Positions 1,330 through 58,316 of a stretch of DNA of 64,000 nt are shown in pieces. A model generated the notes under the pieces. That model worked only from the letters and a program-made list of their open reading frames with translations, made no database searches and had not been told where the DNA came from. Within the stretch, counting starts at the first letter, position 1. Every line of letters starts with the position of its first letter. A program made the position numbers and the translations under genes. The DNA comes from Takakia lepidozioides (lineage: Eukaryota > Plantae > Bryophyta), in contig CM060731.1 of assembly GCA_030704615.1 (NCBI GenBank), positions 71,486,001 through 71,550,000 of the forward strand, given 5' to 3'.

Positions 1330-2570
1330 GCGACGGTGATGGATGAGGTTGGACGCGCTTCATCTTTGAAGTAAGGCTTCAAAAGGGAGACGGCAGCTCC
1401 AATTCATACACATCCTCATTCATAACCTTCCGAATGCGAAAGGGTCCCGCATACGGAGGTACGAACTTCGGACTCACTTCCGGAGGTAGTCGGAAATTCT
1501 TGATGTTCAACCAGACCTCTGTGCCTGCCTCAAATTTCACTTCCCTCCGCTTCCGATTCGCCTGCCTTTCATACCGTTTCCTAGCATACTTTACGAGCTT
1601 CAACAAACGCTCGCGTTCTTCCAGTACCGCCGCTACTGCCGGTTCCTCAACGTCCTGGGCGGCCCAACTTGTCGGCACCAGAGGTGCTTTTCCATAGACC
1701 AATACGAAAGGGGAAACTCCCGTTGCAGAGTGTTCTGTGTTATTATAACATAACTCTGTCGCGTCTAAGTGTTCCACCCACCCAGTCTGTTTGGTCTGCC
1801 GACACGTAATTTCCGCAAGATCTGCTTCACTACGGAATTCACTCTTTCTGTTTGGCCGTCGGTCGTAGGTCGGAAGGCGGTGCTCATCTTTAGCCTCGTC
1901 CCCATCTTCTTCCAAAGTGCCCTCCAAAATTTACTCGTAAACTTTGGATCGCGGTCCGAGACAATATCCTTCGGGACTCCATGATGCTTTAAGACGTGGG
2001 CGAAATAAAGACGCCCTGTCTCCTGCGCCGTTGCCGTCTCCTTGGTGGGGATGAAATGGCCCATTTTACTGAACCTATCCACCACCACCATGATTGCATC
2101 GAATCCTTTTGACAGCGGCATAGCAGTCATGAAATCCATCGAGACGCTTTTCCAAGTCCCCTCTGGAATCGGCAAGGGTTGTAACAGCCCCGCTTGCTTT
2201 TTGTACTCGCTCCGGTTTTGTTGGCATGTGGTGCATGTCTTGACATACTCCTCTGCCTCCTCCCTCAGTTTGGGCCAGAAATACTTTCTTCTTCAAGAGT
2301 GCCGCAGTGCGCTTGGCTCCGCCGTGGCCTGCAAGCGGGCTATCATGGCATTCTCTCAAGAGGCTATCTCTGATCCCTCCCTTCGGCACGTAGAGGCGCT
2401 TTTGCTTATACCGGAGCAACCCATTTTGCAAGTGGAACTGCGATTTAACCCCCATTCTCAAGTCATGCATCACGGACTTTGCCAGCTCATCCTTCCGGCA
2501 AGCCTTCCGGATCTTCCTTTGGAGCGCCGTCTCGCCCTTGTACACCAACAAGAGCTGCTGCTTTCTACTT
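1330..2570 (-). pseudogene. Gypsy integrase, frameshifted
   Basis: Split over several frames: H-H zinc finger (ECHDSPLAGHGG), SVSMDF/IVSDRD/DGQTERVN DDE core, GPF motif (PPYAGPFRI). Confidence 0.9.
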
Positions 2571-3759
2571 AAAGCATCGGCCACCACGTTGTCTCTCGTC
2601 CCGGTTTGTACTGGATATCCACGTCGAACACCGCCAAAGTATCTTGCCACCTAAGTTGTTTTGGGGACAACTTGGGCTGCGTGGCAAAATACTTCACCGT
2701 GACATTGTCCGTGAACACCTTCACTGGGTTGGAACTAACATAGTGGCGCCAGAGCTCAAAACAGTGCACCACCGCCTTCATCTCTTTCTCGTGCGTCGGC
2801 CACCGTCGCTCCACTTCATTCAGTTTCTTACTTTCGTAAGCCACTGGACGTCCATCTTGCATCAGTACACCCCCAATCGCGAAGTCCGACGCATCTGTAT
2901 GTATCTCGAACAGACGATCGAACTCCGGGATTTTCAAGACTGGAGCTTCCGCCATCCGCTGCTTCAATTCAGCAAAAGCTTGGCCACAAAAGGTGTTCCA
3001 TGCCCAGACTTTAGATTTACACAGAAGGTCCGACAGCGGCCCCGCGATCTTGGCAAAATTTCTCACATACTTCCGGTAATAGGAGGCGAGTCCTAGGAAG
3101 GAACGCACTCCCGAGACCGAAGTCGGAGGCTCCCAGTCCAAGATCGCCCTCACCTTTCTGTCATCATTTTTGATCCCATCCTGTGTAATCACATGCCCCA
3201 AGAACTCCACTTTCGTGACCCCGAATTCGCACTTTGAAGCTTTGGCATACAGCTTCCCTTCTCGCAATTTTTGGAACACCCTTTTGAGGTGCTCCAGGTG
3301 CTCCTCATTTGTTTTCGAGTACACCAAGATGTCGTCGATGTACACGATCACAAAGTCATCCAACCACTCCTGAAAAAGGCTGTTCATCAGCGTGCTAAAT
3401 GTCACTGGTGCATTGGTGAGCCCAAAAGGCATCACCAAGAACTCATATGAACCATACCTTGTCCTGCACGCGGTCTTCTCCTCATCTCCGTCCGCCACCC
3501 AAATTTGATGATAGCCGGAGCGTAACTCGATCCGGCTGAAATACTTCGCTCCTGCCAACCGATCGAAGAGGTCGTCGATCCTTGGCAAAGGATACCGGTT
3601 TTTGATAGTCACCTTATTCAGAGCCCTGTAATCGACACACATCCGCAGCGTCCCATCCTTCTTGTCTGCGAATAGCACCGGGGCTCCGTAAGGTGACTTA
3701 CTCGGCCGGATGTACCCCTTTGACATTAGATCCTTGAGCTGAGTCTTCAGCTCGACCAA
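2569..3759 (-). pseudogene. Gypsy reverse transcriptase / RNase H
   Basis: [46 protein letters not shown]; frameshifts at both ends. Confidence 0.95.
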
Positions 3760-4007
3760 CTCCTGTGGCTCAACCGGTAGGGTGCCTTGGCAGGCGGTTC
3801 CGATCCCGGTATCACCTCAATCTTGTGGTCAACTCCTCTTCGCGGTGGCAAGCCGCTTGGTAAATCCTCCGGCATCACATCCTGGTATTTCTCCAAAATC
3901 CCCTTGGGCTCGGCTCCCCATCGCCTTCTCTTTTCACTTCTCTAATGTAAAGCAAAAATTGGGGCTCGTGTGCCTCCTCCACGGCCCACTCCTTTGCTGA
4001 CAGAAGG

Positions 4008-5630
4008 TTATATTATTCGCCCTCCCACGGATTTGGGCGTTTCCGACACTCGTAAGACCTCGCCACCATTCCCACATGGCAGCGTGACTACTCTCTTGCG
4101 GCCATCTATAACCGCTCCGGATTTGCTCAAAAAGGTCATCCCCAAAATGAGATCCACTCCATCGATCTCGCAGATGGTGAAGTTTTCACGTCCCTCCCAA
4201 CTCCCCAATTGAAGAGGAACATCAAACGCCAACCTTGTCGCCAACTGAGGTTCTCCTGTGGCAGAGCGCACCTCAATAGAGGCCCCCACGTCACTTGTCG
4301 GGAGTCCCAACTTTCGCGCCGCCGCCGGCGTCATGAAGGAGTGCGACGCTCCTGTGTCCACCAACAACGACACGTTAGTTCCGGATATTATCCCATCCAC
4401 GAACAATAACTGACTCCCTTTACGCAGAGCGCCAGTTTCCTGATACAACTCACAAGAATAGTTGTCTACCTTGCAAGTCCTGGCGACCACCGCTTCCACC
4501 AAGCGACTGATGGTATCTTCCGACAGCTCTGTGGTTGCCCGAGTCATGTTCAATTGTCGAGGTTTTGTGCACTTCTTGGCCATGTGCCCGGGCTCCCCGC
4601 AATTGAAACACACTCCATCAAAGGTTGTCTTCTGTCCGCCATAAGCCGCTCCACCCGCTTTTCCTTTCGAAGCACCGGGTGCCGCCTTGACGTGTGAAGG
4701 CCCTCCCTTCGATTTCCACGTGCCATTGTTGCCGCGTGGCCTATCCCACTTCTTTTCCGGTCGGAAGGAGTCACCTTCCCGCCGGGTCTTCTTGTGGTTC
4801 AGCTCCGTACGGCCTTGTCTCTCACCCCTAGGGACATCCGAGAAACATTCAGCCCTCTCAATTGCCTCGTTCAAAGTCTTGGGTGGCTTCTCCTCCAACT
4901 TCCGCCTGGCCCATGGGGCCAGTCCCGCCACAAAGTTGAAGACCATTTCTGGTTCTGCCATGTCCGCGACTTCGAGCAACAGCACATTGAAAGCCTGGAC
5001 ATACCCCCGAATGTCATCTGTTTGCTTCAAATTCCTCATCCTGTCCCGGGCAAGCCAGGACGTGTTGAGGGGCACATACTGTCTCTTCATCAATTCCTTG
5101 AACCCACTCCAGTTCAAGGTTTCCGGGCTTGGGCCTCGGTCGTGAAGGCGTTTCTGCCACCATTGTTGAGCATAGCCCCTCAAATAGGTGGGAGCCACTT
5201 CCACCCGATCCTCGTCACTCAACTTGGCCGCCCGGAAGTACTGCTCTAGCTCCAGGAGCCAGGTGTTGAGTGCCTTCCGATTTCGGACGCCCTCGAAGGT
5301 GCCGGGTTCCTTAGGCTTCACTTTAAACTTTGCCTTAGTGGAAGTGGCATTAGCCGCCTTCAACACGTCTTTCAACGTCCCGCCAAACTGCGCCAACAAC
5401 CCTTCCCAAAAGGCTGCCGGCATGGGAGGCATCTGTTGGTCGGTCGGAGCTCTCACGGATTCCTCGGGCTCCGACTCCTCGGATTCCTCCCGCTCTTGAG
5501 CGGCCTCGCTTTCAGAAACCTGCGTCGCTTCCTCAAACGGCCGCTTCGGTGACACGTCGCCCCCATCGGGCTCACCAGGATCATCATCTTTTGGGCCGTT
5601 CCGCTTTCGCTTTGGCTTGCCCGACCCCAT
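4008..5630 (-). CDS. Gypsy gag-protease ORF
   Basis: Zinc knuckle CFNCGEPGHMAKKC; protease LLVDTGASHSF and DLILGM. First ATG downstream of the PBS is at 5630. Confidence 0.9.
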   Translation of the reverse strand: MGSGKPKRKRNGPKDDDPGEPDGGDVSPKRPFEEATQVSESEAAQEREESEESEPEESVRAPTDQQMPPMPAAFWEGLLAQFGGTLKDVLKAANATSTKAKFKVKPKEPGTFEGVRNRKALNTWLLELEQYFRAAKLSDEDRVEVAPTYLRGYAQQWWQKRLHDRGPSPETLNWSGFKELMKRQYVPLNTSWLARDRMRNLKQTDDIRGYVQAFNVLLLEVADMAEPEMVFNFVAGLAPWARRKLEEKPPKTLNEAIERAECFSDVPRGERQGRTELNHKKTRREGDSFRPEKKWDRPRGNNGTWKSKGGPSHVKAAPGASKGKAGGAAYGGQKTTFDGVCFNCGEPGHMAKKCTKPRQLNMTRATTELSEDTISRLVEAVVARTCKVDNYSCELYQETGALRKGSQLLFVDGIISGTNVSLLVDTGASHSFMTPAAARKLGLPTSDVGASIEVRSATGEPQLATRLAFDVPLQLGSWEGRENFTICEIDGVDLILGMTFLSKSGAVIDGRKRVVTLPCGNGGEVLRVSETPKSVGGRII

Positions 5631-5671
5631 GATGAGGCCAATCCCAAGGATGATCGCGTACTGAACTCTAA

Positions 5672-5683
5672 GCTCTGATACCA
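5672..5683 (-). promoter_or_regulatory. Primer-binding site (initiator tRNA-Met)
   Basis: TGGTATCAGAGC on the minus strand, 2 nt from the LTR end. Confidence 0.9.
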
Positions 5684-5685
5684 AG

Positions 5686-6411
5686 TGTCGCGCACCTCAC
5701 TTCAGTAAGCTCCCCTTCAAGATATAGTTACTCGCTTTGATGCGCGCGCCTGACTCCCAACCTGGCCGCCGGGCCAACTTGGAGCTTCGGCTGCTCACCG
5801 GGACATAACGGTCCCCCCCTTCGCTTCCCACTAAACCCTCCACCTATTTGGGCCTAGAGGAATTCCCTTTAGTAGATGGCAGTCCGGAACAGCTCCCCAC
5901 TCTTTGGTCGCTTTCCGGCTCGCTCGCTTACTCACTAGTTTTTGGTCACCAACGGGCTTGCACCGTTCTCGGGTTACTACTCCCTATATATACTTCTGTA
6001 GCTGTCCGCGGGGGTTTCACAACCAGCCATGCCATTTTATGGCGAACCACCACGAAAACCCTCGACTCCCGGTGATGAGTCGCGGTGAGTCTTGGCCTGC
6101 TCACCACGGCCCCTATGGACCGTGATGAGTCCCAAGACTCCCCACGACTCCCACCACGAGGTCTCCGCCCCCATGGTGAGTCCTATGCCACCCCCACTAA
6201 GTCCCGCTAAGCTACCACCACCCCTTGTGGAGCCACCCCCACCGCAACCCGGTGTGCGGGGCTCCACCTAGTGAGCGCCTCCGCTTCCCTGAGTGCCTTG
6301 GGCGCTCAAGGGTGCTTCAGCCCCCCATACCTATCGCTGCCGCTGCCCCCACCACAGGGGCAGCCCCTCATGTGTCCCGACCCCCTGCCCTCAAGGCAAA
6401 GGGCCGCGACA
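5686..6411 (-). repeat. 5' LTR (726 bp) of the Gypsy element
   Basis: Bounded by terminal inverted repeat TGTCGCG...CGCGACA, adjacent to the PBS. Confidence 0.85.
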
Positions 6412-11539: not shown

Positions 11540-11933
11540 ATAAATTAAATCCCCAACCCCCCACAGCGACGCGTGTCAATTGACATGAGGAACCACGTGT
11601 CAGAATCACGATGCGACACGTGTTGACGTCTGATTCCCTCCTCTGCAGTCAGGATGGCGTCGCAGTCTGACACGTGGCGTGTTCTGTAGAGAGCACGTGT
11701 CTCTCTTACATTGCGGCTGACATGGACCCGTTCAGTCATTCAGTAAAGCCAGCGTGTATGACTACCCCCATAGCTGCTCAGGCGCCACGTCACAGCAAGG
11801 CTGGTGAGTCATATCTGCCATGCCACAACTGACTAGGGTTTTACGACTGCAGAGTCATGAAGTCGTAAATGGCTTTCATAACTGCATTTGCAGTCATAAC
11901 ATAGAGTCGTAAAAGCTACAATCTATTGTAGTG
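11540..11933. mobile_element. Second CACTA terminus, same family and orientation as the one at 1320
   Basis: Ends ...AATCTATTGTAGTG (reverse complement CACTACAATAGATT) with the same subterminal motifs. Left boundary approximate. Confidence 0.75.
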
Positions 11934-14900
11934 TGCCAACTCCCGCTGAACCTCAAGCACCTCCCACGTGTGCCATGGATGTCTGCACCCCGTGGTCTTC
12001 ACCTGCTCACCCCTACTCACTGTCTGTACCGTCTCGGTAGGCAGGGAGCCTGTGGCTGAAGCATACTCTCCACCAGAGAGCTCCACCAAACTAGCCTCCC
12101 AGAGATCTTGAGTCCTCATCTGAATCAAAGACCTCTCCATGTCACTGTTTCTATAGGGTCTCTGAAAGATCGGCATGTCCGTGGCCAACTCAATACGAAT
12201 CTCTTGACCCTTCAGTGCTCCCAAATCCTTCAAACTGAAGGCAAAACAACTCCTGTAAGCCCTCAGGAAGCGCCGTATACGTCATCTCTCTCCTCTAGTG
12301 ACAATGGGTCCAATGTCAGACTCCCAATTGTCCTCCGTAACTGCAACCTTAAGTCCAGCAGACTTAGAGGTAGAGGACGCGTCCCGTGGTTGCTATGCTG
12401 CAACCTCTTGAGCAGTACTCCCTGCCTGCTCAGTCAATGACAAGGCCTCATCCTACCCCATCATCTCATCCGTGATGACCTCCTCAACCCGAGAAGAATC
12501 CCCAACCTCATCCATCACAGCCGCCTTGGCTGCCAACTCCCTCTGAACCTAGAGCACCTCCCACGTGTGCCATGAATGTCTACACCCCGTGGTCCTCACC
12601 GGCTCGCCCCCAATCACAACCTGTACCGTCTCGGTAGGCATAGAGACCGTCAAGGGAAGTGCACTCCACACTCTACGTTGCTCAGCCATAGCCAAGTTGA
12701 TAATCTATGTCAAGCAATTGAGATCCATCATTTGCCCCAACACCTGGCGACGTGATGCCTCAGAAAGAGAAGACACTGCCGTGGTCCCAATGGAAAAACC
12801 CATAGCCCGCTCTCGCTCATCGGCATTGGGCTCCACTAACTGCTGCAATTGAGCATCCCGCAGGAGGCCAGGTCCACTATCCCGGAAAGCATGCGATCAT
12901 GGGAAGCTTAGCAGTGTAGGTAGTGTTGCTCGTGGTTGACCCACCTTGTTGACCATTGCCAAAGGTGAACGGTCATCGTGTCTCACACGCTGAGACTGCC
13001 TCCCTGTGTCCAAAATGCTATCCACTGTGAGGTGTGCTAGCCGCTGCACCCCATCAAAGGCATGCTTGAGCAATGCGACCCAGCCACGATCGGACTTGAT
13101 GCACATTGGCCATCACCCTGGCCCGAGAATCGCCCATTAGTAGCACATTCTCCAAGATGTATGCTGGAGATACAGCTTGATGAAGCTGTAAGTGGCGCAA
13201 AACCCGTATGCACCATCTTCCAAAACAGACCCGACCTCGAGTCTCGCAATCCATTGCCATGCCCGGCTGATGAATGCCCTTGGCAGGGCCAACCTGCCAC
13301 TACCACATCAATGGAGCCAACCCGCTCCAAATCCTGCGCCCCCAGCAAAGAGATGTCTGCTGGCAAGGCCTGCTGATATCCACGAACCGCAAACACTGAC
13401 AACAACTCAGGGTACTACTGCACCAACTGAGCAACATGACGGAGTGAGACGCGTCGTGCAGTCTCATCCCTCTCCACATACAAGTAACGCCGTACCCGTA
13501 TACCCGGCTGTAGCACAACAGCCAATCTGGTGCTGATCCCGCCAAACAAGTCCAGAAAGCAAATGCCTTCATCCGGACACTACCACACGATCAGTGTCCA
13601 ATGGTGACAACAGAGATGGACCTGATGCAATCCCCGCACTGTCCTCCTCTCCTGATGGTACAAAAACCTTTATCCATGCTTGTTGCACCCATCGATCAGC
13701 AACCCGCTGCAAATCCTGCTCGAGCCCCACAATACAGTGTGAGCAACCATGGCAGGCAACTCCGCCATACCATATATATCATCCTGCTCTCCCGGAGGTG
13801 ACACATCCTCTAAATAAGCGTTGCCCTCAAGCAACACTCCAGGCCAATTCATTGTAGTTGTGAATGCTGCCAGTGTTGGCATCTTGCCTCACTGGGCAAC
13901 CGTAACTCCTCCTATGAACGTCATAGGAAGATGCACATGTCGGCCCTCCCCTGACTGCCATCCAATCCTCTAGGAAGCTGACTTCCCCCAAAAATCCATG
14001 GTGAAGCCTATGGGGTACAACACTGCCCCATCAACAATGACATCGTACGAGACCGCGTCTGTTACAATGGCCTTGGCTCTCATCACTGAGCCATATGTAG
14101 GATGATCCGGTTGTAGTCGGATAGCCAACTCACGTCGTGTCATGCCCCGAGCGTGCTCTAATCATCCCAGAGATGTCTGTATCTGGAAAGGGCACAGCTC
14201 CATATCCGCCTCCATGAGGCCCAAGCCTGCAATAGCAGCTCTGCCCAACATCAATGGCTGAGTTCCAGAGTCCAACAAGACTCGTAGTGGCCGGTACCTC
14301 TTGCCTGCCGGTCCTCTCAAACTGAAAAATGCCATCTTGGTTGTCTAACATGACAGCTCCAGGTGTCACCATGGCGCGCTCAATGGCTGGCTTAGTTGGC
14401 AGCTCTGCCAACCTGGCAGCTGCAGCTTGCCATGGCGCCGCCATGGCAGTCTTGACCCTCAAATCCGAGGATCCCTCCGGCACTACACCTCCCACTATCT
14501 CCGCAGAAGATGAAGTAACCTCCCCATTCTCATAGAGTGTAGCTGCCAGCCTGAACACCTCAGCTGGTCTTACCCCCAGCGTCGCAATCATGGTAGCCGA
14601 GAACAATGGAGCCTGGCACACAACTATGGCCGCCCCCAATAGCACACTAGCTGCCGTAGCCTTGACAACACAAGGTAGTGGTGCTGCCCGTGTAGCTCTC
14701 CCCAATGGCATAGTAACCTCCGCCTCAGTAACAGTCGGGTAAGAACTAGGTGCCATGGACGGCGTCGACATTGTCTCCACCAATGTGAATGACTGAGGAA
14801 GCCTGGCCTGACGGCTTGCCTCCCCACGCTGTGAATCCAACTCCACCTCTACACCTCGTGGCTCAGGAACTCGTGCTGCTCCTCGAGTCACTGCCGCAGC

Positions 14901-16000
14901 CGACTCCACTTGCACTAGTGGTAGTGCTGCCCCGCACATAGTGGTAGTGGTAGTGCTGCCCGACACTAGTGGTAGTGGTGCCCCACCCACAGTGGTAGTG
15001 GTAGTGGTAGCCCATACATAGTGGTAGTGGCAATGGCACCCCTCACTAGTGGTAGTGCTGCCCCGCACATGAATCCCATGCCTCCCATGTCTCCTCCCTC
15101 AAGAGCAGGAGGTGGACCATCCGGCCTTGGAGCCGGTACCACCTGAGCTATGGCCATGGCAGCGAGCCTCTGCTCTAGCTGCTGAAGCCGGTTGGCCATG
15201 CTTTGGTCAACACCCTGACCTCCGCGTCCTTGGCCATGTTGAGCTTGCCCTTGGCCTGCACCTCGTGCTTGGCCACCTCGTCCTCTCTGGGCTGCTCCAC
15301 CTCGCCCTCGGCCACCATTGTTCCCTTGGAACTGGCCTGGGCGCAACTCAGGATGCAAACCATAGCACTGGGCCTCTTCATGCCCGTACTTGCCACAATG
15401 CCCACACTGCAACTGTACAGGCTGTGCCGGTGCCAAACCATTGCCTCCCTCTGGGCAATCATTCTTGACATGGGGTCCTCCACATGTCTAACACACCACA
15501 TCTGCCTGTCGTTAGCTTACAAATGAAGGGAGAGACCCTTGCATCTGAGGTCCTCTCTGCCCTTCCCTGGGCTTCACCTGAGCCCCTTTGTTGCCTTGAG
15601 CACGTTGAGGTAGTGGCTGGCTAGGAGCACCACTACCCCGTGGTGCCTCCTTAGCAAATCCCACCATGACCACTCGTTCCTCCACCATGTTGAGTTCTAT
15701 CCGCTCTGCCAGCAAAAACACATTTGCTAAGGTGGGTTGGGCCGCTTGTAGGAGAGTTGCATCCCGCACCCTTCTCTTCAGCTGGACTTGTCCAATATCC
15801 CGTACCAGACACTCCTCAAACCGCCCTCCACGAGCTCATGAAACTTGGCTTCCAATGCCCCATGCAAGCCTCCACAGGGTCCGCCTCCTTACGTCCACCA
15901 GCCATTCCTCAGAATGGAACAACCTCGAGAAACCACGCCATTCACTGAAGGTTAAAAAATGGATCCAATAGAGGTACATATAGGCCCCAACAACATTCTG
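11934..16000 (-). mobile_element. Decayed Ty3/Gypsy-type retrotransposon: gag-PR-DNMT-RT(truncated)
   Basis: Zinc knuckle CGHCGKYGHEEAQC (~15365-15406); protease RVLLDSGTQPLMLG (DSG 14264-14272); C5-MTase domain; RT start IRIELATDMPIFQRPYR...EYASAT (~12050-12235). No LTR identified; 5' boundary uncertain. Confidence 0.85.
12700..13580 (-). pseudogene. C5 cytosine DNA methyltransferase domain within retrotransposon pol
   Basis: Motif I LDLFGGI (13535-13555); IV AGWPCQGHS (~13277-13294); VI YILENV (13144-13152); IX EPNADERERAMGF (~12795-12835); X RRQVLGQMMD (~12722-12752). Stops and frameshifts present; motif VIII not found. Confidence 0.88.
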
Positions 16001-17920
16001 TCCAAAGAATTACATGCACGTTGGTCTCCCCCATAGTTAAGAATTGGGCTGAAAACCCGAAAAGATTACCTGCAGGGGAGTAATCCCCTTTGTTAAAACG
16101 CAACAGGGAGGCAATTCCAACTTTTTTGCCGGATCAGCTAGCTCAAAACCGTTGTTCTTCAGAGCCCAGCCTCCCCATCAAGGTCCCACGAAACGAGTAA
16201 AAAATGAATGAATTAATTAATTAATTAATTAACTCTGACTGTTCGCGGCCATCCGTGGCCCAGCCGCCACGACTCCTCACGGCCCGCCCTAGTCGCTCGT
16301 TGGCCATGGGCTGCCCTGCGATACCCCGTGGTACCACGCCCACGAGCCTTCCCGGCCCGCCATCCCCACGATCTGGTCACTGTGCCAACCCGTGGTGTCC
16401 GCACCACGGCTTTCCACGGTCACGGTCAACGGTCACGGACAACAGTTCCCTGCGTTCCCAGGAACTCCACACGAATTCCCATGCGTTCTCGATCGCTCTC
16501 GGGACGTTCCCACGTGTTCTCGAGTTTTCCCCGAGCTGGGGTTTGCTCCTGCACCTGCTGCTGCTGAGCTATGGCTTCTGCGGAGCCATCAGCCCCATCG
16601 CCCTCCACTCCTGAGCTCTCATGGCCCACTAGAAGCGCCCCCAACTCAACAAGCAAGCTATATGCTGCCCAACAAGCTCTATTTTCTTCATGAAGCTCAC
16701 AAAAACAAATCTGAAAATATACACCTTTACAACCTTGGTGTACCTGCAGTTCTACTGCACGTTCCCTGGCTCTAGGATGCCTAGTTGCTGCCCTTCTAGC
16801 CCCACTCTTGCCACTCCAAGAGCCCTTACAGTACTAGAGTTTCGGATTGAAACTTCCAACTCAAGCACATGCTTCACAAGTGCACTGATTTGCACACAAG
16901 AGGGACTAGCCCTCTCTCTTCACTCATACCTCTTCATGAGCTTGGAGCTGAAGCTCCCAACGGGCTGCGATGCATCCCCTCGCAGCTCCACTATTCGGCT
17001 GCTCCTCATCTACCCGCAACATCTAGTTTCGGGCAGAGATACCTGGAGCTGATCATATCATCTCCAACCTGCAACATGCTAGCTTCCCATGCGCAGCCCA
17101 CATTCCTGCAGCTCCTTAACTCGCCCTGCAGCTGAAGAAGATGACCACCAGTTTGCCCACTCGTGGCCAACATCTCCTCCGCTTCACACTAGAACCGCAT
17201 ACTCAGTTGTCATAGCGTTGAGCTATGCAACACTGACCGCCTCTCCATTGCAAACCTGCAACCTATTCGCTTTTGCACTCTATCTGCTTTGGATAGGCTC
17301 ATGCACGGATCCCTGCACTCTAGGCTAAACCGTTTCTCATGATCTAAAAACACAAGTGCTACAACTAACTCGAACCTGACACTCACAGACTCGAGCTGAT
17401 CTTTCTCGAGTGATAAAGAAAGGAAGATACAAACACACAAGCTCTCTCAAACTCACATACTTGCACATGAAAACACCACTCATATATTAAGTCGAGCCAA
17501 GCGCACCCCACGCCATGGGGAATCCACACTACGGCGCCATAGCTAGACGCGGTGAGGCTCAACTCGAGAAAGATGAGCCCACTGCGATTTGCCGTGAAGA
17601 TAACAACGCCAGGTGCCCAAACATATATTGGCCCCTGGATTGACATTTGGGTCAATCCCAAATATCAATATATCAAAACTAACTATTTCCTAGCTAGTTT
17701 CACACTAGTGATAAAATAACTTGACAAAAAAAAATGAGAAAAATAGACCCCATGGGAGAGTGTTTTTTTTTGTTTTGTTTTTTTGTTCTGGTGGAAAATT
17801 GTCAAATTTGGGACCTAGAAAATGATGCGGCAGCTACTTGTACAAAGAAATTATGGGGTATAAAAATCAAAAATTTCGCCAAAAAGCGCCTAGTTGAATA
17901 TCAGGGGAAAACAATAGGAA

Positions 17921-20900
17921 CTAGGGTAGCCCGTGCCGTTGGCCCAAGTGTCCAATGTCATCTAGGTCCAAGTGCATCAATATATGAAGCAAGCCATATC
18001 TAATCTTTTTTTTCCACAGAGCCTACAACCACATTTGAACCGGAGACCTTTCTTCTGTCGAGGTTCCAATCATTGTGCAGCGACCAAAAGTACTTCAAAT
18101 TCGCTTTAGCCATACCTCATCTTTTTTCCCACAGAGCTTACGACCATATTTGAACCGGAGACCTTTATCTTGAGATCTCTCCTGTCGAGGCTCCAACCAT
18201 TGTCCCAGGAATATTGCCCATTTTGCTATTTTTTGCGAATTTCCAGCGACCAAAAGTACTTGGAATTCCACATCTCCCACACTGCATGTCCAAAAATCAT
18301 GAGACCAAGCCGGTGCACCCCTCCACATCGAGGGCTTTCCAACGGCACCAAGCACCGGGGCTGGGGCCCCGCGGTTTGGGAGATCTCAACAACGCTACAA
18401 ACAAAACAAACAAAACAAAATAAAACGTCTCGCTTCGTATATTGACTAGGGTAGCCGGTGTCGTTGGCCCAAGTGTCCACTGTCATCTAAGTCCAAGTGC
18501 AATCCCCTATGTATCTAGACACCCTCATCTTTGGGAGATCTAGGCCTAGGGTAGCCTGCGTCATTGGCCCATGTGTTAAGAATTGAGATCTATGTCCAAA
18601 TGCAATCCCCTATGTGTTTGAAGTAGCGTCTCCTATGTCAAGGCATATGTGTGAAGAATTGAAATCTAAGCCCAAGTGCAATTTCTCATGTATCCAAGTG
18701 GGTCTCCTATATCGAGGCCCAAGTGCGACCTCTAGTGTAGCCTATGCCGTTGGCCCATGTGTGAAGAATTGAAATCTAAGCCCAAGTGCAATCTTCTATT
18801 CATGTATCCAAGTGCATCTCCCATGTATAGCCCCAAGTGTCCAGTGTCATTTAAGTCCAAGTGCAATCCCATATCTAACCATTTTTTTTTTTTTTTTTTC
18901 CTCAGAGAGCCTACGACCAGATTTGAACCGGAGACCTTTCCCTTGATATCTCTCCTGTCGAGGCTCCAACCATTGTCCCAGGAATGCCCACTTTGCCATT
19001 TTTGCTTATTTTTGTGAATTTCCAGCGACCAAAAGTACTTGGAATTCCGTATCTCTCACACCTCAGGTCCAAAAAATTCATGAGACCAAGCTGGTGCATC
19101 CCTCCTTGTCGAGGGCTTTCCAACGGTACCCAACACCAGCGTTGGGGCCTCGCGGTCTGGGACATCTCAACGTGACAAAACAAACAAACAAACAAACAAA
19201 CAAATCATCTTAATTCATATACTGACTAGGGTAGCCTGTGCCGTTGGCCCAAGTGTCCAATGTCATCTAAGCCCAAGTGCAATTTCATGTGTATCCAAAG
19301 GCGTCTCCCATGTGCGTCTCTCATGTCGAGGCCTATCTAAGCCTAGTGTGCAATCTCCTATGTATCCAAGTACGTCTCCCATGTCAAAGCCCGATTCATT
19401 TTTTTCCATGAATTTATTGAGTGGTAATATATCATATCATTATTTGATGGCCTCTCATTGTTTAATAATAGGGTCATGAATGCATGGGCGGGCCCCACCA
19501 GTACGACCCTTGGGGTGAGCTCATAAGCCCACCGTCGGCGAGATTCTGAATTTTTTTTCTAAGTTCTTGTTAATCTACCGTGGCGGACCGTCTAGCGGAC
19601 TGGGCAGACCCTCCAAGAGACCGACACCAACCTTCTAGCAGACCCTCCAGCAGCCCTTCCAGACCCCCCTCCAACAGACCGGCTTAGACCCTCCAGCAGA
19701 TCGGTAGACCCTTCGACAAAATATATATTTAATAACACACATTATTACCACGGTACAACATAACAAGATTTGAACACCATACTTCATGTTTATCATTCAT
19801 TACTCTTAACCACCACACTACCCACCACTTTCTACAAACCCATGCAATAACTAATGCTTTATGTGCATATTGTGGGCCCAGCAGACCAGCTTGCCGGGCA
19901 AACCTAGCAAGCAGACTGGCGGGGATTGGCGGGGTCTGGGTAGGGGCGCTCCCACCCTCCACGACCCCCTCTGCCACACGCGGGCCCCGCCGCAGCCACA
20001 CGCGCGGGCATTCATGACCCTATTATTGTTAAATGAGAAGCTTATTGATATCTCATTCGTCTCTAGGGTAACTTGTGCCGGCGTTGGCCCAAGTGTCGTC
20101 TAAGCCCAAGTGCAATCTCCTATGTATCCAAGCGTCTCCTATGTCGAGGCCCAAGTGCGACCTCTAGGGTAGCCTGTGCCGTTGGCCCAAGTGTCCAGTG
20201 TCATCTAAGCCCAAGTGCAATCTCATGTATATCCAAAGCCATCTCCCATGTGCGTCTCCCATGTCGAGGCCTATCTAAGCCTAGTGTGCAATCTCCTATG
20301 TATCCAAGTACGTCTCCCATGTCAAGGCCCGATTCATTTTTTACCATGAATTTATTGAGTGGTAATATATATCATATCATTGTTGATATATCTCTCGTCT
20401 CTAGGGTAGCTTGTGCCGGCGTTGGCCCAATTGTCATCTAAGCCCAAGTGCAATCTCCTATGTATCCAAGCTTCTCCTATGTCGAGGCCCAAGTGCGACC
20501 TCTAGGGTAGCCTGTGTCGTTGGCCCATGTGTGAAGAATTGAAATCTAAGACCAAGTGCAATTTCCTATGTATCCCAGTGTGTCTCCTATGTCGAGGCCC
20601 ATCTAAGCCCAAGTGCAATCTCCTATGTATCCGTCTCCAGGGTAGCCTGTGTCATTGGCCCAAGTGTCCAATGTCATCTAAGTCCAAGTGCAATCCCCCA
20701 TGTATCAAAGTGTGTCTCCTATGTCGAGGCCCAAATGCAACCTCTAGGGTAGCCTTTGCCATCTAAGCCCAAGTGTCCACTGTCATCTAAGCCCAACTGT
20801 AAGATCTTATATGTATCCCATTGTGTCTCCTATGCTGAGGCCCAATGCGACCGCTAGGGTAGCCTATGCCATTGGCCCAAGTGTCCGGTGTCATCTAAAC

Positions 20901-23269
20901 CCAAGTCCAATCTCCTATGTCCAGTGCAATTTCCTATGTATCCAAGTGCGTCTCCTATGTTGAGGCCCAAGTGCAACCTTTAGGCCCTAGGGTAGCCCGT
21001 GTCGTTGGCCCAAGTGTCCAATGTCATCTAAGTAAGTTTTTTTCCATAGAGCCTATGACCAGATTTGAACCGGAGACCTTTCCTTTGATATCTCCTCCAA
21101 CCACTGTCCCAGGAATGCCCACTTTGCCATTTTTGCTATTTTTTGTGAATTTCCAGCGACCAAAAGTACTTAGAATTCCACATCTTCCACACCGCAGGTC
21201 CAAAAGTCATGAGACCAAGTTCGTGCTCCCCTCCTCGTCGAGGGCTTTCCAACGGTACCAAACACCCGCGCTGGGGCCTCGCGGTTTGGGACATCTCAAC
21301 GTGACAAAACAAAACAAAACAAACGTCTTGCTTCAAAGATTGACTAGGGTAGCATGTGCCGTTGGCCCAAGTGTCCAATGTCATCTAAGCCCAAGTGCAA
21401 TCTCCTATGCATCCAACTTTGGCGTCTCCCATGTGCGTCTCCTATGTTGAGGCCCATCTAAGCCCAGTGTGCAATCCCCTATGTATCAAAGTGCGTCCCC
21501 TATGTCGAGGCCCAAATGCAACCTCTAGGGTAGCCTTTGCCGTTGGACCAAGTGTCCAATGTCATCTCAGTAAGTTTTTTTCTACATAGCCTAGTGTGCA
21601 ATCCCCTATGTATCTCGAGACCCTCCTGTTTGGGAGATCTAGGCCTAGGGTAGCCTACGCCATTGGCCCATGTGTTAAGAATTGGTATCTAAGTCCAAGT
21701 GCAATCCCCCTATGTATTCAAGTAGCATCTCATATGTCAAGGTCCATGTGTGAAGAATTGAAATCTAAGCTCAAGTGCAATTTCTTATGTACCCAAGTGG
21801 GTCTCCTATGTCGAGGCCCAAGTGCGACCTCTAGTGTAGCCTATGCCGTTGGCCCATGTGAGATGAATTGAAATCTAAGCCCAAATACAATCTTCTATTC
21901 ATGTATCCAAGTGCATCTCCCATGTACAGGCCCAAGTGTCCAGTGTCATCTAAAGCCCAAGCGTAAGATCTTCTATGTATCCCAGTGCGTAGGGTGGCAT
22001 GTGCCTTTGGCCCATGTGTGTGAAGAATTGAAATCTAAGACAAGTACAATTTCATATGTATCCCAATGCGTCTTCTCTGTTGAGGCCCAAACCTGGAGTG
22101 TAGCCTACGCCTTTGGCTTATGTGTGAATAATTGAAATCTCAGACCAAGTGCAATTTGTATGTAGGCAAGCGCGTCTCCTATGTTGAGGATAGCCTGCGG
22201 CGTTGGCCCAAGTGTCCAGTGTCATCTAAGTCCAAGTGCAATCCCCTATGTATCCAAGTGCGTCTCCTATGTCGAGGCCCAAATGCGACCTCTAGGGTAG
22301 CCTGTGCCGTTGGCCCTAGTGCCCAATGTCATCGAAGCCCAAGTGTAAGATCTTCTATGTATCCCAGTGCGTCTCCTATGTCGAGGCCCAAGTGCGACCT
22401 CTAGTATAGCCTATGCCGTTTGCCCCATATATGAAGAATTGAAATCGAAGACCAAGTGTAATTTCCTATGTATCCAAGTGCAAAAGTACAATTTCATATG
22501 TATCCCAGTGCGTCTTCTATTTTGAGGCCCAAGCCTTGAGTGTAGCCTACGTTGGCCCAAGTGTCTAGTGTCATCTAAGTCCAAGTGCAATCCCCTATGT
22601 ATCCAAGTGTGTCTCCTATGTCGAGGCCCAAATGCGACCTCTACGATAGCCTGTGCCGTTGGCCCAAGTGTCCAATGTCATCGAAGCCCAAGTGTAAGAT
22701 CTTCTATGTATCCCAATGCGACTCGTATGTTGTTTGCCCCATATATCAAGAATTAGAATCTAAGACCAAGTGTAATTTCCTATGTATCCAAGTGCAATCT
22801 TCTATTCATGTATCCAAGTGCATCTCCCATGTAGAGCCCCAATTGTCCAGTGTCATCTAAGCCCAAGTCCAATCTCCTATGTATCTAGTGCGATTTCCTA
22901 TGTATCCAAGTGCATCTTCTTATGTCGACCAAGTAAGTTTTTTCCCACAGAGCCTATGGCCAGATTTGAACCGAAGACCTTTCCCCTGATATCTCTCCCC
23001 TCGAGGCCCCAACCATTGTCCAAGAATGCACACTTTGCCATTTTTGCTATTTTTTGTGAATTTCCAGGGACCAAAAGCACTTGGAATTTGACATCTCCAA
23101 CACGGCAGGTCCAAAAATTGTGAGACCAAGCCCGTGCACCCCTCCTCGTCGAGGGCTTTCCAACGGTACCAAGCACCAGGGCTCGGGCCTTGCGGTTCAG
23201 GACATCTCAACGTGACAAAACAAAACAAAACAAAACAAAACAAACAAATCGTCTTAATTCATAGATTGA
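17921..23269 (-). mobile_element. Head-to-tail tandem array of four non-autonomous Helitron units
   Basis: Minus-strand 3' end GGCCAACGGCACGGGCTACCCTAG|T at 17921; 5' end A|TCAATC at 23269; internal CTAG|TC junctions at 18445/6, 19225/6, 21343/4; A|T target. Confidence 0.8.
19449..20042. mobile_element. MITE (Mutator-like) inserted in the Helitron array
   Basis: ~35-bp TIRs GGCCTCTCATT..AATAATAGGGTCATGAATGC / GCATTCATGACCCTATTATT..AATGAGAAGCT. Imperfect TSD TATT(T)GAT. An empty paralogous site lies at ~20370-20395. Confidence 0.7.
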
Positions 23270-33600: not shown

Positions 33601-36600
33601 AAAGCTGGGCGAGAGACTTGGCAGGGTTTGTTTCATCTGCTTTAAGTCACGGAAAGGAGCTTGCGATGACTGTAATTTACCTTTATCTGGAGCAACTTAA
33701 GATTGTCAGACAGTGATAGTATTTGGCACTCTTAACATCTCGATGTTTTCTTTTGGGGAAGATTGCAAAATTATAAGCACCTGGGCCTGCATGCTTAATA
33801 CCAGTGCTCCAAATCGGCCTCCAATTCCTCACCAAGAGATTCCAGAATCCAGGTTTTTTGTCAGGTCCATCGTTATACAGCTGGATTTGTTTCTGAACAT
33901 GGGGACAGTACGACAGTGCCTACATGATTCTACTTGTAAAGTTTCAAAGGCTATGCAGATATCTGGGTCTTCCAGGGAAGGCCTTAGTTTCAAGTAACTG
34001 CTGTGAGGACTTGTGACGAGAACTTGATCAGGCTACGATGACCCAAGCAGACCAATTTATACCGGAGAGTTAAGATGATACAGAGCATAGTACAGCCTTT
34101 ACTCTACTTATAGCCCAACCTCTCTCATTAATCTTCTAGGATAATGAAGGTGAGTTTGACATGCAGGTGAATTGGGAGTTAAGACTATCCAAGAGGGAGG
34201 CAGCTCTAAGAATTGCGGAAGAGAGACTACTGGAGGAGCAACAGAAGCTCTCTGAAACACAGCTTTCAGTTGCTAGATGTGAGGAGGCTTTGTTACAGCG
34301 GGAGCAGGCCATTAAGCATGATAAAGAGGTGAAGACTCTCCAAAAAGGGCAATCTAGGCTAGAAGTATCACGTGGCTTGTTCTGATTTTCCAAATGCTTG
34401 GAAGTCATGTGTGTGGGGTGGTCCCATGCTGATTCTTAGGTTGCAGCTGTGGGCTACAGATACACCATCTTGTCTAAGTACATCTATCAGAACTTAGGTC
34501 CATTCTTGACAATTTCATGCAATGGAGTAAGACTATCTGTTGCTAAGCTTTTTGGGGCTCTAAGTAGCTTTTACTTGATGGATGGTGAGATCCCTTGGAA
34601 ATTGTCTAACTTGCAGGCCTCTTTTAAGGTGTTACAGCAGCACAAAGGTGAAATGGCAGAGACAGTTAAGTCTATGGAGACAGGGAAGGCAGTTATGAAG
34701 AAGCTGCGTGCAGCCTTGAAGGAGGTGCTACTGCAATTGGAACAAAAAGAAAAAGTGCTACAAAGTGCTTGGGTTGAGGTTAGTGACTCAAGTGACACTG
34801 GGTCACTGGTTAGAAATCACTCTTTTGGTTTTGAGCCAGATCTATCAGCAAGGATTAAAAAAACTGCCAGTTTTGATGGGGTTTCATTGCTGGCCGCCGA
34901 AGGCAAGTGTGAAGAATGGTGTACAACTGTAATTGGTATATGTGAGCGTCTGGTTGCCTTTATGGGGCGAGAGACCCACCTCCAAAAGTGGGCTATTATA
35001 TTAGAGAGAGAAGGGGTACGGATGTCCAAAATGGAGGAAGAGATGGCCAAAGCCAAGGAAGCTGCCACTGAGCGATCTGCAAGAGCAGAAGCCATGATAC
35101 TGTCTGCAAAGGAGCAAACCTCCAGGGTGGAAGACGAAAGTGTCAAGCTGGCCCAGGAGCGTGAGAGCCTGGTTCTTTGGGTCACCCATCTGCAGGAACG
35201 CCGCAAGGTGCTTGCCTAATGCTTGTGCCATTTTGCTTTATCTGTGTGCTGATTGCTGACTGGTTTTGCTACATCCTCATGTTAGAGAAGTGAAAACTGA
35301 GAGATTTGCAAGAGAAATGAAATAATACTTTATAACATCGATGGAAAGTTGAGAGAGCTTATGGGACAAGAGTAGTGGGAACACCTCATTGAAGAAAGAG
35401 ACTGTAAAACTTCTTGATTCGGTTCCTCGAGACCTTCTTTTCCAACGGCTCCATAGGATGGGAGTAACTCCGGACATCATATATGCCATCTTACCCATGT
35501 ATGAGATTGTCATTGGCATGGTCAACGTCCGGGGGGAATTCTCAGCAGAGGTGCATAGCAAGATTGGTCAAACAGGGCTGCCCCCTCTCACCTACCCTTT
35601 TTGGATCTACATTGATGCTTTGGAGGGTTACATCTCAAAAAATCATGGAGTTCAGGTGCTGTTGGATGGGGGACCAATGCAATCAGCACTCCTCTATGCT
35701 GATGATGCTGCCCTCTTGGCACAATCTCCTGTCTTCCTACAACGCCATCTTCGCATCTTGGAAGAGTTCTCCAAAGACTATGGGTTGCAGGTCAATCTTA
35801 GCAAAACTAGGATCATGGTTTCCAATGGCCAGGTGGACCACAGATTCATCTTCAACCAACAGGAGATTGCGATTGTCAAATCATACCAATACCTGGGTCT
35901 GGTTATCCAGTCTCCCAGATTCCAGTTTGCATCGACCGCCCTGGACAGATTGAGAAAGGGCAAGGCTGCCTCCATCCGCCTTCAGGCCAAATGCAAACAG
36001 ACACATCTGCACCACCCCCCAACCAAAAAGTGGCTATTTGACAGCGTTGTCACCCCGGCCGCCACCTATGGTTGGTGTCCCAGTTTCGTGGTGGGAAAAT
36101 AATCTGGAACCGTTGCAGTCATCTTTTCTCCAAGCAGGGCTTGGCGCCAGAGGCACAACTCCATCTCACATCCTATGTGCAGAGTGCCACTTCAAACCGA
36201 GGCCCTCTTCCGGCTTACAATCTTTCTTAGAAGCTTACAAGCCCTTCCACCCAAGGGGCTCGTGGCAAGAGCCCTCGCAACATCTATTAGGCCCAAAACA
36301 GCAGGTTTCAAGCACTCCTGGTATGCTTGAGTGTGCAGTTTTTTTTGAGCGCAATGGACTCTCTATTGCTTTGCTATTGCCACAAAATCCAGAAGGTGGA
36401 AATCACATCCAAACAGTATGGCAACAGACTCATTAGAAGAGAACTTATGGAACTACCTGTCAGGAGAACTTGGAAGCTACCCAATCCCCAACAAAACTCC
36501 ATTTCGAGAGACATTCTTAGTTCTCCGTGGTGATAGAATTTTGTGGCCCAATTACACTTCAGGCTGCCAGCACATAGGGCAATTACAATCTCCTTTTCCT

Positions 36601-57600: not shown

Positions 57601-58316
57601 GCACTGAGAATGCTCTCTTGGCATTTCCACCCTCCGCTGGATTCACTGCACAGGTACAGCAAGCTCTCAATGCGTTGTCTGCACGATTGAGCCTGATGGA
57701 GCAGATTGAAGAAGGGCTGGCAAGCCACCTGCGAAAGGCGTATGAGACAGAGACCCCAGAATCTGAGGGAGTGATTGTTGACAAGGTGCAGCTGCTGTGT
57801 CGCATGGAAGAGCAGCAGAGCTTACGTGCTGAGTGGGAAGAAGACATGCAACGACAGTTAGAAACCATCAGCATGCTTCAGGCGGCCTCCCGAAACTCAT
57901 CCAATTTCAACACCCCAGTGAAAATGACCAATTCAAGCCCACCAAACATGAATGACTGGCAAAACCATGGTAGCAGTGGGAGCAATGGTTTGCAGGGTGG
58001 CAAGTCACATGCAGGTTATGACATGGGGGGACGGATTGGCAATAATGGAGTTGGCCCTCCTGTACCACAAAATCACAGTGCAGGAGGGTCCAAGCCTTCT
58101 CGACAATTCTCGTCGCCAGAGTGGAACACAACATTTGAACCATTGCTAGGAGTGGATTCTAAAGGGCTGTCTTACTCTCCACTTGTGGACTTCAACTACT
58201 TAAATAGCCCAGCCGAACAACATCAGCCAGAGTTTGGGGGAAGGGAAGGGGAGGGTCATGAAAGGAGTGCGCGACGCAAGCTTCACTTGTCCCCCCCGCA
58301 TGTTGCCTACAGTTAG
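27617..58316 (+). CDS. Large coiled-coil protein of unknown function, ~17 exons, ~2,190 aa
   Basis: Phase-consistent exon chain: 27617-27724, 28287-29257, 33075-33153, 33464-33625, 34140-34328, 34617-35207, 41901-42698, 42978-43226, 43572-43775, 48607-48804, 48936-49025 (GC donor, uncertain), 51155-51482, 51788-51951, 52275-52772 (3' edge uncertain), 53282-53488, 53822-53931, 56678-58316. Ser-rich N-terminus, E/K/R/Q-rich heptad body. Confidence 0.8.
27815..28060 (+). mobile_element. LINE family A degraded 3' fragment (sense to host)
   Basis: LKGLHTLRTRLKF...NKRQFRRGKGDC...IHFLIPCPGYSHQR is homologous to the C-terminus at 39038-39673. Confidence 0.7.
30184..31130 (-). mobile_element. LINE family A 5'-truncated copy
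   Basis: Homologous to ~39032-39950; shares the 3' end ...TCTTATGAGTACATTCT. Confidence 0.85.
31432..31995 (-). mobile_element. LINE family B degraded 3' portion
   Basis: VFHYEEQKCSAAYLHEAFTL plus the GAGCTTTCCACGGACGTTATAAAGTACC terminus. Confidence 0.75.
32320..32785 (-). mobile_element. LINE family A 3' fragment with 9-bp TSD
   Basis: TSD CAAAAAAGA at 32311-32319 and 32786-32794; near-identical to 39032-39495. Confidence 0.9.
35413..36570 (+). mobile_element. LINE family B RT fragment (RTE/RTEX-like)
   Basis: DSVPRDLLF, KQGCPLSPTLFG, LLYADDAAL, YQYLGL; frameshifted. Confidence 0.9.
38085..39010 (+). mobile_element. LINE family B 3' fragment interrupted by a LINE A fragment (38458-38813, minus)
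   Basis: RFRVGSHSLRIE|TGRWENLQ is split by the insertion; 14-bp TSD AGTCTGCGGATAGA at 38444-38457 and 38814-38827. Confidence 0.88.
39032..41588 (-). mobile_element. LINE family A 5'-truncated copy containing RT and C-terminal CCHC
   Basis: GNYRGITLL, FLDVKKAYDTV, QGCTLSPLLF, MFADD, CPLC...H...C; two frameshifts. 14-bp TSD CAAGCTCTGAAAGA at 39018-39031 and 41589-41602. Confidence 0.95.
45235..45598 (+). mobile_element. TRIM (364 bp) with tRNA-derived LTRs
   Basis: 144-bp LTRs TGTTGGA...TCCAACA (45235-45378, 45455-45598; 1 mismatch); PBS TGGTATCAGAGCC; PPT GAGGGGGAG; 5-bp TSD CTTGG. Confidence 0.95.
45286..45357 (+). ncRNA. tRNA-like cassette inside TRIM LTR (second copy 45506-45577)
   Basis: A box TAGCTCAGTGG, B box GGTTCAATCC, D stem GCTC/GAGC, T stem CTAGG/CCTAG. 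Acceptor stem is imperfect and the anticodon loop non-canonical. Confidence 0.8.
46585..46995 (-). repeat. Three 141-bp (47-aa) coding tandem repeats in LINE A N-terminus
   Basis: PKC.EPER...EGF.TLNGLPILKVYTRR..S.HGV.VP; ACTTAGGG recurs at 46697, 46838, 46979. Confidence 0.95.
49277..50220 (-). mobile_element. Older diverged LINE family A copy
   Basis: EIPVLPSYTYLGVEFSSNCNWDAH, NEVRNKTSLNLFPVCDMG; same 3' terminus. Confidence 0.85.
54056..56557 (-). mobile_element. LINE family B 5'-truncated copy with (ATTTC)8 tail
   Basis: RT (GVKQGCPLSPTLFG, LYADD), HNLRIETGRW...CPAC...HFFFYCP, perfect GAAAT array 54056-54095; interrupted by the TRIM composite. Confidence 0.93.
54365..55234. mobile_element. 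Tandem plus inverted composite of the tRNA-LTR TRIM
   Basis: LTRs 54365-54509, 54586-54725, 54801-~54935; then inverted partial LTR to 55014, internal region to 55089 and LTR 55090-55234. TSD TTCTT at 54360-54364 and 55235-55239. Confidence 0.93.

Follow-up and report, generated by a model that had tools for sequence, protein, structure and literature searches.

Since 2018 it has been an open question why a retrotransposon should carry an enzyme that normally silences it, and the carriers known so far are found in algae that are difficult to manipulate. We met this question in a 64,000-nucleotide stretch of the bryophyte Takakia lepidozioides (contig CM060731.1, positions 71,486,001 to 71,550,000; hereafter the window), where six-frame translation reveals a Gypsy-type copy on the minus strand at 17704-11934 with, in order, a gag zinc knuckle, a protease, a C5 DNA methyltransferase (DNMT) and the start of a reverse transcriptase (RT). 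An original prediction made from the letters of this DNA had described the same minus-strand order, with an LLDSG protease and a PIFQRPYR start of RT, and we located every feature it named at its place. The kind of element is already known (KnitGypsy-Dnmt3 of Klebsormidium nitens; de Mendoza et al. 2018, PMC5890265). What appears to be new, judging from sequence, is a land-plant radiation in which the DNMT has moved ahead of a conserved and probably leaky stop codon.

A conserved stop codon follows the methyltransferase

We compared the window copy with relatives from a metagenome scan (325 candidate stretches, 126 confirmed, the best 80 taken), whose loci were chosen by DNMT patterns so that DNMT-less sisters would be missed, and with a nearly intact divergent subfamily, L041 (L041:618-6809, one extra stop). 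A stop stands at one and the same codon in 46 of the 49 sequences spanning DNMT to RT (TAG in 31, TAA in 15). Within the main metagenome family 44 of 47 copies have a stop at that codon, compared with at most 13 at any other of 511 codons. The CAA that follows the stop is invariant in 43/43 non-redundant copies, and CAA CC is common to L041 and the window despite the diverged linker around it. In the host, positions 12387-12395 show no difference at a level of 4% or more among 1029 contigs, and positions 12385, 12398 and 12399 vary. The stop is fixed among host copies, and at 12395-12393 it is the family's normal state, not decay. The stops of this copy had been read as breakage, which holds for several of them but not for this one.

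Annotated open reading frame 1 (ORF1) proteins of Marchantia, Calypogeia and others end at the position of this stop; in Marchantia the evidence is where the proteins end, and the stop context is seen there at the protein level. ORF1 runs 87-107 residues past motif X of the DNMT in annotated proteins of the bryophyte clade and 109-155 residues in those of its sister group. The conserved stop after the DNMT means that the DNMT closes the Gag-protease ORF and is part of the abundant Gag-protease product. On either side of this stop, the single one in the family's majority state, the frame remains open, and the distant relatives P0230 and P0270 have the same domain order in one unbroken ORF of 2188-2300 residues, so the DNMT and RT parts form one frame. 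The earlier reading of a DNMT in the element's polyprotein is supported, with one refinement: the DNMT is not an ordinary Pol domain in the RT frame but ends ORF1 ahead of the stop.

The RT is probably reached by readthrough of the type known from tobacco mosaic virus (TMV), for which the consensus after UAG is CAR-YYA (PMC2194720, available text). The TAG and this consensus are matched exactly in the window and in L041. Three points weigh against readthrough: the main metagenome family has CAA CCC, which is one base off the consensus; no conserved RNA structure was found 3' of the stop (z -0.3 to -2.2); and the in-frame stop of Tca2 has, in the available text of PMC2194720, not been shown to be read through. 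Our literature search on the readthrough motif in retrotransposons found no paper. The TAA variants are scattered on the copy tree and fit decay, and TAG versus TAA does not separate readthrough from splicing. One contig crosses the stop without a gap; its source is only guessed to be RNA, and we counted it neither for expression nor against splicing.

Splicing between protease and RT is known from Ogre-type elements. Here, Pol could likewise be made by splicing onto the AG of the TAG, which would drop the DNMT from Pol, or by reinitiation, with the role of the enzyme the same in either case. The last two letters of the TAG do form an AG, and in the main family a T-rich run precedes the stop and an ATG follows two codons later, which would suit such routes. 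Both the T-run and the ATG are missing in L041 and the window, however, where CAA CC is kept, and the open frame with its one majority-state stop and the continuous ORF of the relatives also argue against them. We therefore regard splicing or reinitiation as unlikely.

The enzyme is of DNMT3 type and under purifying selection

The original prediction had proposed a search with the DNMT profile PF00145, and we obtained a match in the motif I-IV frame of the window (E 4.3e-8, 33.4 bits against a cutoff of 22). The motifs it had listed in canonical order were located as follows:

13535-13555, minus strand: motif I, LDLFGGI
13277-13294, minus strand: motif IV, GWPCQG
within 13135-13152, minus strand: motif VI, ENV
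12795-12821, minus strand: motif IX
12720-12740, minus strand: motif X

Motif VIII is gone from this copy with 28 residues deleted at 13073-13078, and is present on loose ends of other host copies. The window domain aligns with that of a near-intact relative across three frames at 60-68% identity. In the element family the motif order is unrearranged, as in DNMT3. The closest solved structure to the L041 domain is DNMT3A (E 1.1e-11; motifs I, IV, VI, VIII and IX aligned), ranking above DNMT3B, the permuted plant enzyme 4onj and bacterial enzymes. Catalytic motifs I, IV (PC), VI (ENV), VIII (RxR), IX and X are intact in 7/7 aligned near-intact relatives, which were picked for being intact; in the decayed copies of the main family the motif IV Cys is kept in 46/47 and the ENV Glu in 44/47. 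By its motif content, the element is predicted to encode an active-type C5 methyltransferase, which is broken and lacks motif VIII in the window copy.

Selection on the domain, another proposed check, was estimated between the window, L041 and main-family subfamilies. The nonsynonymous divergence (dN) of the DNMT is 0.16-0.33, with synonymous divergence (dS) at least 1.4 or saturated; in the same comparisons dN is 0.38-0.42 for the protease and 0.13-0.15 for RT. Selection on the DNMT is purifying, stronger than on the protease and weaker than on RT.

The copy in the window and its full-length relatives

The window copy is dead, as had been predicted, and truncated: several stops and frameshifts interrupt it, it lacks most of the capsid region, and RT is cut near 12051. 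Its parts are:

17411..17704, minus strand: 5' terminal repeat A, 294 nt, TG...CA; contig depth high over 17316-17883, end abutting the priming site as in relatives
17563..17574, minus strand: 12-mer in repeat A complementary to the primer-binding site; predicted RNA 5' end for self-priming
17399..17410, minus strand: primer-binding site adjoining repeat A, putatively of self-priming type
15785..17398, minus strand: 5' leader and a stretch in which capsid-coding sequence is mostly missing or replaced
15677..15784, minus strand: last helix of the capsid domain (gag profile E 1e-7)
15365..15493, minus strand: two CCHC zinc knuckles (nucleocapsid), with a stop in the first (PF00098 in relatives)
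15455-15493 and 15365-15406, minus strand: the individual zinc knuckles
14913..15064, minus strand: local tandem expansion within gag, which shifts the frame
13967..14305, minus strand: aspartic protease, LLDSG at 14264-14278 (PF13975/PF13650 in relatives)
12690..13576, minus strand: DNMT3-type C5 methyltransferase domain; motifs I, II, IV, VI, IX and X kept, VIII deleted; frameshifts and stops
12396..12689, minus strand: ORF1 C-terminal tail, poorly conserved
12387..12395, minus strand: conserved in-frame TAG followed by CAA CCA, fitting the TMV readthrough consensus
12051..12386, minus strand: start of the RT ORF, PIFQRPYR at 12150-12173, in the frame of the DNMT end; broken off near 12051
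11934..12043, minus strand: second ORF1-tail piece, 110 nt, an 88%-identical copy of 12531-12640; ends at a CACTA-like terminus at 11933

The element had been given a span of 11934..16000. The arrangement of its priming site together with the 5' repeat puts its start at ~17704, and the piece at 11934-12043 is linker, not RT. The outer 5' end of repeat A is set by the TG start alone, without a target-site duplication (TSD) as a check. Over 15785..17398 the gag profile finds no match and contig depth is about 1/20 of that of the coding part; a loose end at 15809 runs on into gag in another host copy. At the other side, at 12050, further host copies run on into RT, as seen from a loose end and a contig piece. 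Pfam does not recognise the protease, knuckle and RT pieces of the window on their own; these were identified by 40-68% identity to relatives in which Pfam finds the domains.

Similar CACTACAA termini lie at 11933 (minus strand) and 1320 (minus strand). The flank at 11934 corresponds to the left half of the family linker and the flank at 1321-1352, in opposite orientation, to its right half, and both touch GCA. The arrangement suggests that a single CACTA element inserted into a second family copy with a 3-bp duplication and that the product was later split or inverted. A degenerate tandem array of about 5 kb, with units of ~110 nt, occupies 17900-23250 directly upstream of the element's 5' end.

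Full-length relatives have repeat A, capsid, zinc knuckles, protease, DNMT, stop, RT, RNase H, integrase, PHD finger and a terminal B-A-B of repeats. They thus show the GAG-PR-RT-RH-INT order of Ty3/Gypsy, of which the window copy reaches only the RT start. Pfam finds the PF00098 nucleocapsid knuckles and the rve and H2C2 integrase domains in relatives. ORF1, with its DNMT, has no targeting module, and the PHD finger sits on the integrase. The N-terminus of ORF1 is, as modelled, a retroelement capsid. The L041 model (pLDDT 77.5) folds as such, and the first 35 rows of a wide structure search are all retroelement capsids or derivatives, with a Copia capsid on top (Z 12.5, rmsd 11.7, 155 residues aligned). 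Its C-terminal domain alone compares with PEG10 at Z 11.5 and rmsd 2.5 over 84 residues. Foldseek with the same model gave no capsid match at E <=0.001; its best was PNMA2 at 4.7e-3.

Termini point to self-priming and a DDE integrase

The relatives carry a 338-nt repeat A at the 5' end and, at the 3' end, a G-rich purine tract followed by B-A-B. The relatives do not have two matching flanking long terminal repeats (LTRs); the layout is A-internal-B-A-B instead, of which the window keeps the 5' repeat only. The 3' end is a complete B-A-B in 6 cases and B alone in 8, the latter perhaps through recombination or assembly collapse. The relatives' ends are TG..CA, and among 10 full-span elements the 4-bp TSD is exact in 6, has one mismatch in 3 and is unclear in 1. 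Such ends and duplications indicate integration by a DDE integrase. The family is Gypsy-like in its proteins and atypical in its termini.

In a related family, copies that keep the priming site show its 12 nt, which adjoin the 5' repeat, paired with a stretch of that repeat lying ~30 nt downstream of a TATA box. The window has the same pairing in other letters, 17410-17399 with 17574-17563, the longest inverted pair being 13 nt, and none of 200 shuffles reached a pairing of at least 12 nt; repeat A of the window has no significant DNA similarity to repeat A of the relatives. The pairing suggests that the element primes itself.

The A/B junction, CA-GT-TG, resembles joined cDNA ends and the B/A junction, CA-GC-TG, resembles paired integrase sites, which suggests a circular intermediate. 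A symmetric two-LTR-circle model is too simple to account for the ends by itself, as it predicts that A-B-A-internal-B copies should occur too: B stands before A at 0/25 5' ends.

The family is widespread and its methyltransferase keeps its place

A 117-residue piece of the window DNMT matches 64 proteins. The 25 that are organism-labelled all come from bryophytes: 19 from Marchantia polymorpha, 3 from Calypogeia fissa and 3 from Sphagnum. The fetched metagenome loci are colinear from gag and knuckles through protease, DNMT, RT and RNase H to integrase and PHD. Contigs from sequencing runs of the host cover 11920-15895 at a summed depth mostly 10-40x that of 15896-17315, with roughly equal depth over the DNMT, the protease and the RT start; such depth shows many DNMT-bearing copies but does not count them. 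The family is present in the host in high copy number with the DNMT at a constant place, not a one-off, and the paralogues keep their DNMT, as the original prediction had required, in DNMT-selected loci and by host contig depth alike.

A profile search of 1.84 billion representatives gave 346 clusters (50% identity) at E up to 1e-30. Among the 144 new proteins in the best 150, the DNMT stands after RNase H or before integrase in 75, after protease or before RT in 17, and alone in 52. The 75, together with P0172, P0176 and P0178, form a large sister clade from environmental eukaryotes whose domains run RT-RNase H-DNMT-integrase-PHD. At motif IV, EC replaces PC in many distant relatives. The two layouts split in both the DNMT tree (99/88) and the RT tree (100/99), and the bryophyte copies group together in each (98/99 and 100/100); neither tree includes the window copy, host DNMTs or Klebsormidium. 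Between the family and its sister clade, the position of the DNMT in the polyprotein has shifted.

These data bear on a further reading, in which a host gene was captured once or recently and does nothing for the element. The window DNMT is 60-77% identical to most element copies and remote from DNMT3A, and no named cellular DNMT appeared among the protein-search matches, which are element-type or without a name. Since host DNMTs were left out of the tree, this test of host-gene origin is indirect, and DNMT-less sisters could have escaped a search by DNMT patterns. The DNMT nevertheless holds the same position across liverwort, moss and host subfamilies under purifying selection, belongs to a group of 346 clusters, and splits into the two architectures just as RT does. 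We consider such a capture, which is already largely refuted, almost certainly wrong.

The viral contigs gave 8 weak matches only, at 30-40% identity. One 1417-residue protein, P0062, combines RT, a C5 DNMT of this group and a Dam-type adenine methyltransferase, and is possibly a DIRS-like element with both methylases.

Comparison with known elements

The closest published element, KnitGypsy-Dnmt3, shares with this family the Gypsy-type domains, a DNMT3-type domain with unrearranged motif order and under purifying selection, and DIRS-like A-coding-B-A-B repeats (PMC5890265, available text). It differs in its host, which here is a land plant with close relatives in liverworts and mosses, and in its architecture: its authors place the Klebsormidium DNMT in the RT/RNase H ORF (PMC5890265), whereas here it ends the Gag-protease ORF. 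In the family the DNMT shares the frame of RT and RNase H but is separated from them by the conserved stop; in P0230 and P0270 all three lie in one ORF. The self-priming site, 4-bp TSDs and integrase-PHD documented here go unmentioned in the available text on KnitGypsy-Dnmt3 (PMC5890265). No Klebsormidium-named sequence was among the matches of our protein and cluster searches.

SymbioDIRS-Dnmt3 likewise has a DNMT3 in a retroelement polyprotein and split direct repeats, and its de novo activity at CG has been shown in yeast; it is a DIRS element with a tyrosine recombinase, whereas this family has a DDE integrase, capsid, protease and TSDs (PMC5890265, available text). We rejected a DIRS/Ngaro (tyrosine recombinase) identity on the rve and H2C2 integrase domains and the 4-bp TSDs. 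Troyka elements, which do not have split repeats, were also rejected: they have CG..CG termini and a 3-bp TSD and occur in animals only (PMC12440569), and the family has TG..CA and 4 bp. DAM-LTR / EpiLTR elements are Gypsy-like with a DNA methyltransferase in the polyprotein too, but the enzyme is either an adenine methyltransferase or, at the end of pol, a C5 methyltransferase that is sister to DNMT4. The preprint describing them treats them as distinct from streptophyte Gypsy-DNMT3 and, in its available text, mentions no Marchantia, moss or bryophyte (bioRxiv 10.64898/2026.05.21.726589).

In-frame stops between two ORFs are known from TMV, SIRE1, murine leukemia virus (MuLV) and Tca2, and the window and L041 share the TMV-type 3' context (PMC2194720, available text). 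In those systems the stop lies at gag/pol or pol/env; here it follows an accessory enzyme (Gag-PR-DNMT / RT), and readthrough is predicted. Self-priming Gypsy clades, with Tcn1 in plants, similarly have no tRNA primer site but a post-repeat site that pairs with the predicted RNA start; they are chromoviruses with two ordinary LTRs, in contrast to the split repeats and PHD finger seen here (PMC6317226, available text).

A 2019 opinion, in its available text, holds that land plants such as tracheophytes lack methylases encoded by transposons, and rests a hypothesis on that loss (PMC6338049). PMC12344493 and the bioRxiv preprint 10.64898/2026.05.21.726589 say, in their accessible parts, just 'streptophytes' and cite the 2018 paper. 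Such an element was not found in the available text of PMC10952607, PMC6453930, PMC11982613, PMC8566409, PMC5784723, bioRxiv 10.1101/363937 or PMC6317226, and that of the Kuafuorterviruses paper held nothing relevant. Our literature searches, whose incomplete coverage is not proof of absence, found no description of the bryophyte copies, the stop or the self-priming site.

What the enzyme may do for the element

We propose that a DNMT3-type enzyme made at capsid level methylates the element's new cDNA in the particle, with RT, RNase H and integrase supplied by occasional readthrough, and we give this an even chance of being right. The RNA would start in repeat A and prime itself at the site right behind A, and ribosomes would pass TAG CAA CC at a low rate to give the full Gag-PR-DNMT-RT-RH-IN-PHD protein. 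The protease would free the DNMT inside the particle, where it would write 5-methylcytosine de novo on cDNA before or at integration, most likely at CG as a DNMT3-type enzyme, and the DDE integrase with its PHD finger would insert the cDNA at TGTC-type ends. New copies would then arrive already marked like host heterochromatin.

DNMT3 domains of Symbiodinium retrotransposons do methylate CG de novo in yeast (PMC5890265, available text). A possible footprint of self-methylation is seen in L041, where 10 CG stand at codon junctions against 109 expected (observed/expected ratio, o/e, 0.09) with no loss of CHG, and the DNMT-less Gypsy in the window is not CG-poor (o/e 0.76-0.88). Several observations weigh against the proposal. 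At codon junctions a host ORF in the window is also very poor in CG (o/e 0.12), and the main metagenome family has lost CHG as well as CG, so CG composition may follow the host. KnitGypsy-Dnmt3, the closest published enzyme, gave no methylation in yeast, a result that its authors call inconclusive (PMC5890265, available text). The motif VIII Arg residues are kept in just 27/47 and 31/47 decayed copies; they were lost mostly to His or Cys, the change expected from CpG decay. L041 is the best candidate for a self-methylation footprint, and the overall CG footprint is mixed and not decisive.

With the conserved stop in place, the DNMT would greatly outnumber RT and integrase, beyond what a single cDNA requires. 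The abundant ORF1 product could instead carry the DNMT to host chromatin and methylate genomic copies or competing elements in trans, with copy-number control or interference with host silencing as the effect, rather than methylation of cDNA in the particle. Host-level effects have been raised before (PMC5890265, available text), and the DNMT lacks a targeting module of its own in ORF1, the PHD being on the integrase. Fusion to capsid and nucleocapsid ties the DNMT to particles, however, and its place between RNase H and integrase in the sister clade (75/144 proteins) points to a job on cDNA or at integration; we rate action in trans as unlikely.

The inactivity of KnitGypsy-Dnmt3 in yeast (PMC5890265, available text) and the EC at motif IV of many distant relatives would also fit a domain kept mainly as a DNA-binding or structural part, for instance at the B/A junction or the cDNA ends, with methyl transfer weak or incidental; the unusual repeat layout needs an unusual end-processing step. 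Near-intact copies, however, have retained the whole set of SAM-binding motif, catalytic Cys, ENV and RxR although synonymous sites are saturated between subfamilies, which makes a mainly structural role very unlikely.

Other features of the window

A second Gypsy element, little decayed and without a DNMT, lies at 1379-5696 (minus strand) with capsid, knuckle, protease, RT, RNase H, integrase and SH3; we found no LTR pair for it. Remnants of LINE-type RT and endonuclease occur at 35353-36102, 39038-41643, 45987-47264 and 55600-56619, interleaved with coiled-coil ORFs on the plus strand at 34440-35219, 41865-42719 and 56655-58316, which may be exons of one host gene with transposon-filled introns. 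Beyond 20 kb the window is depleted in CG (o/e mostly 0.25-0.55) and mostly not in CHG (about 1.0-1.3), unlike the main metagenome family, which loses both; the pattern hints at a host with weak CHG methylation.

The last three exons of a DiT1-like plastid dicarboxylate transporter lie at 62171-64000 (minus strand). The last exon is 93-95% identical to moss proteins, and the 34 organism-labelled matches among the best rows are all land plants, as are the later labelled rows. A three-exon tree, in which Physcomitrium rows are poorly aligned and hornwort and charophyte are left out, separates the gene from the liverwort clade (99/99) and gives Sphagnum as its nearest neighbour by path, though not with resolution. 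By this gene the host is a land plant without seeds and probably a moss. This land-plant gene and the bryophyte labels of the DNMT matches support the land-plant setting.

Significance for bryophytes

Taken more broadly, the family may belong to an old, large and for the most part undescribed superfamily of PHD-integrase, split-repeat elements that carry a DNMT3 in two positions and extend into land plants, with a leaky amber stop, DNMT at capsid stoichiometry and pre-methylated integration in bryophytes; we hold this wider picture tentatively, at slightly less than an even chance. Marchantia polymorpha copies with an intact-looking Gag-PR-DNMT ORF (e.g. Mp_4g09160, Mp_8g17980) bring the question of why a retrotransposon encodes its own silencing enzyme to a genetic model, where the conserved stop predicts a stoichiometry with DNMT in great excess over RT. 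The finding also cautions that many entries annotated in bryophytes as 'DNA methylase genes' are ORFs of transposons (19 Marchantia matches). If the wider picture is true, Marchantia would offer a self-methylating retrotransposon that is tractable, and part of the methylation in bryophyte methylomes may come from element DNMTs.

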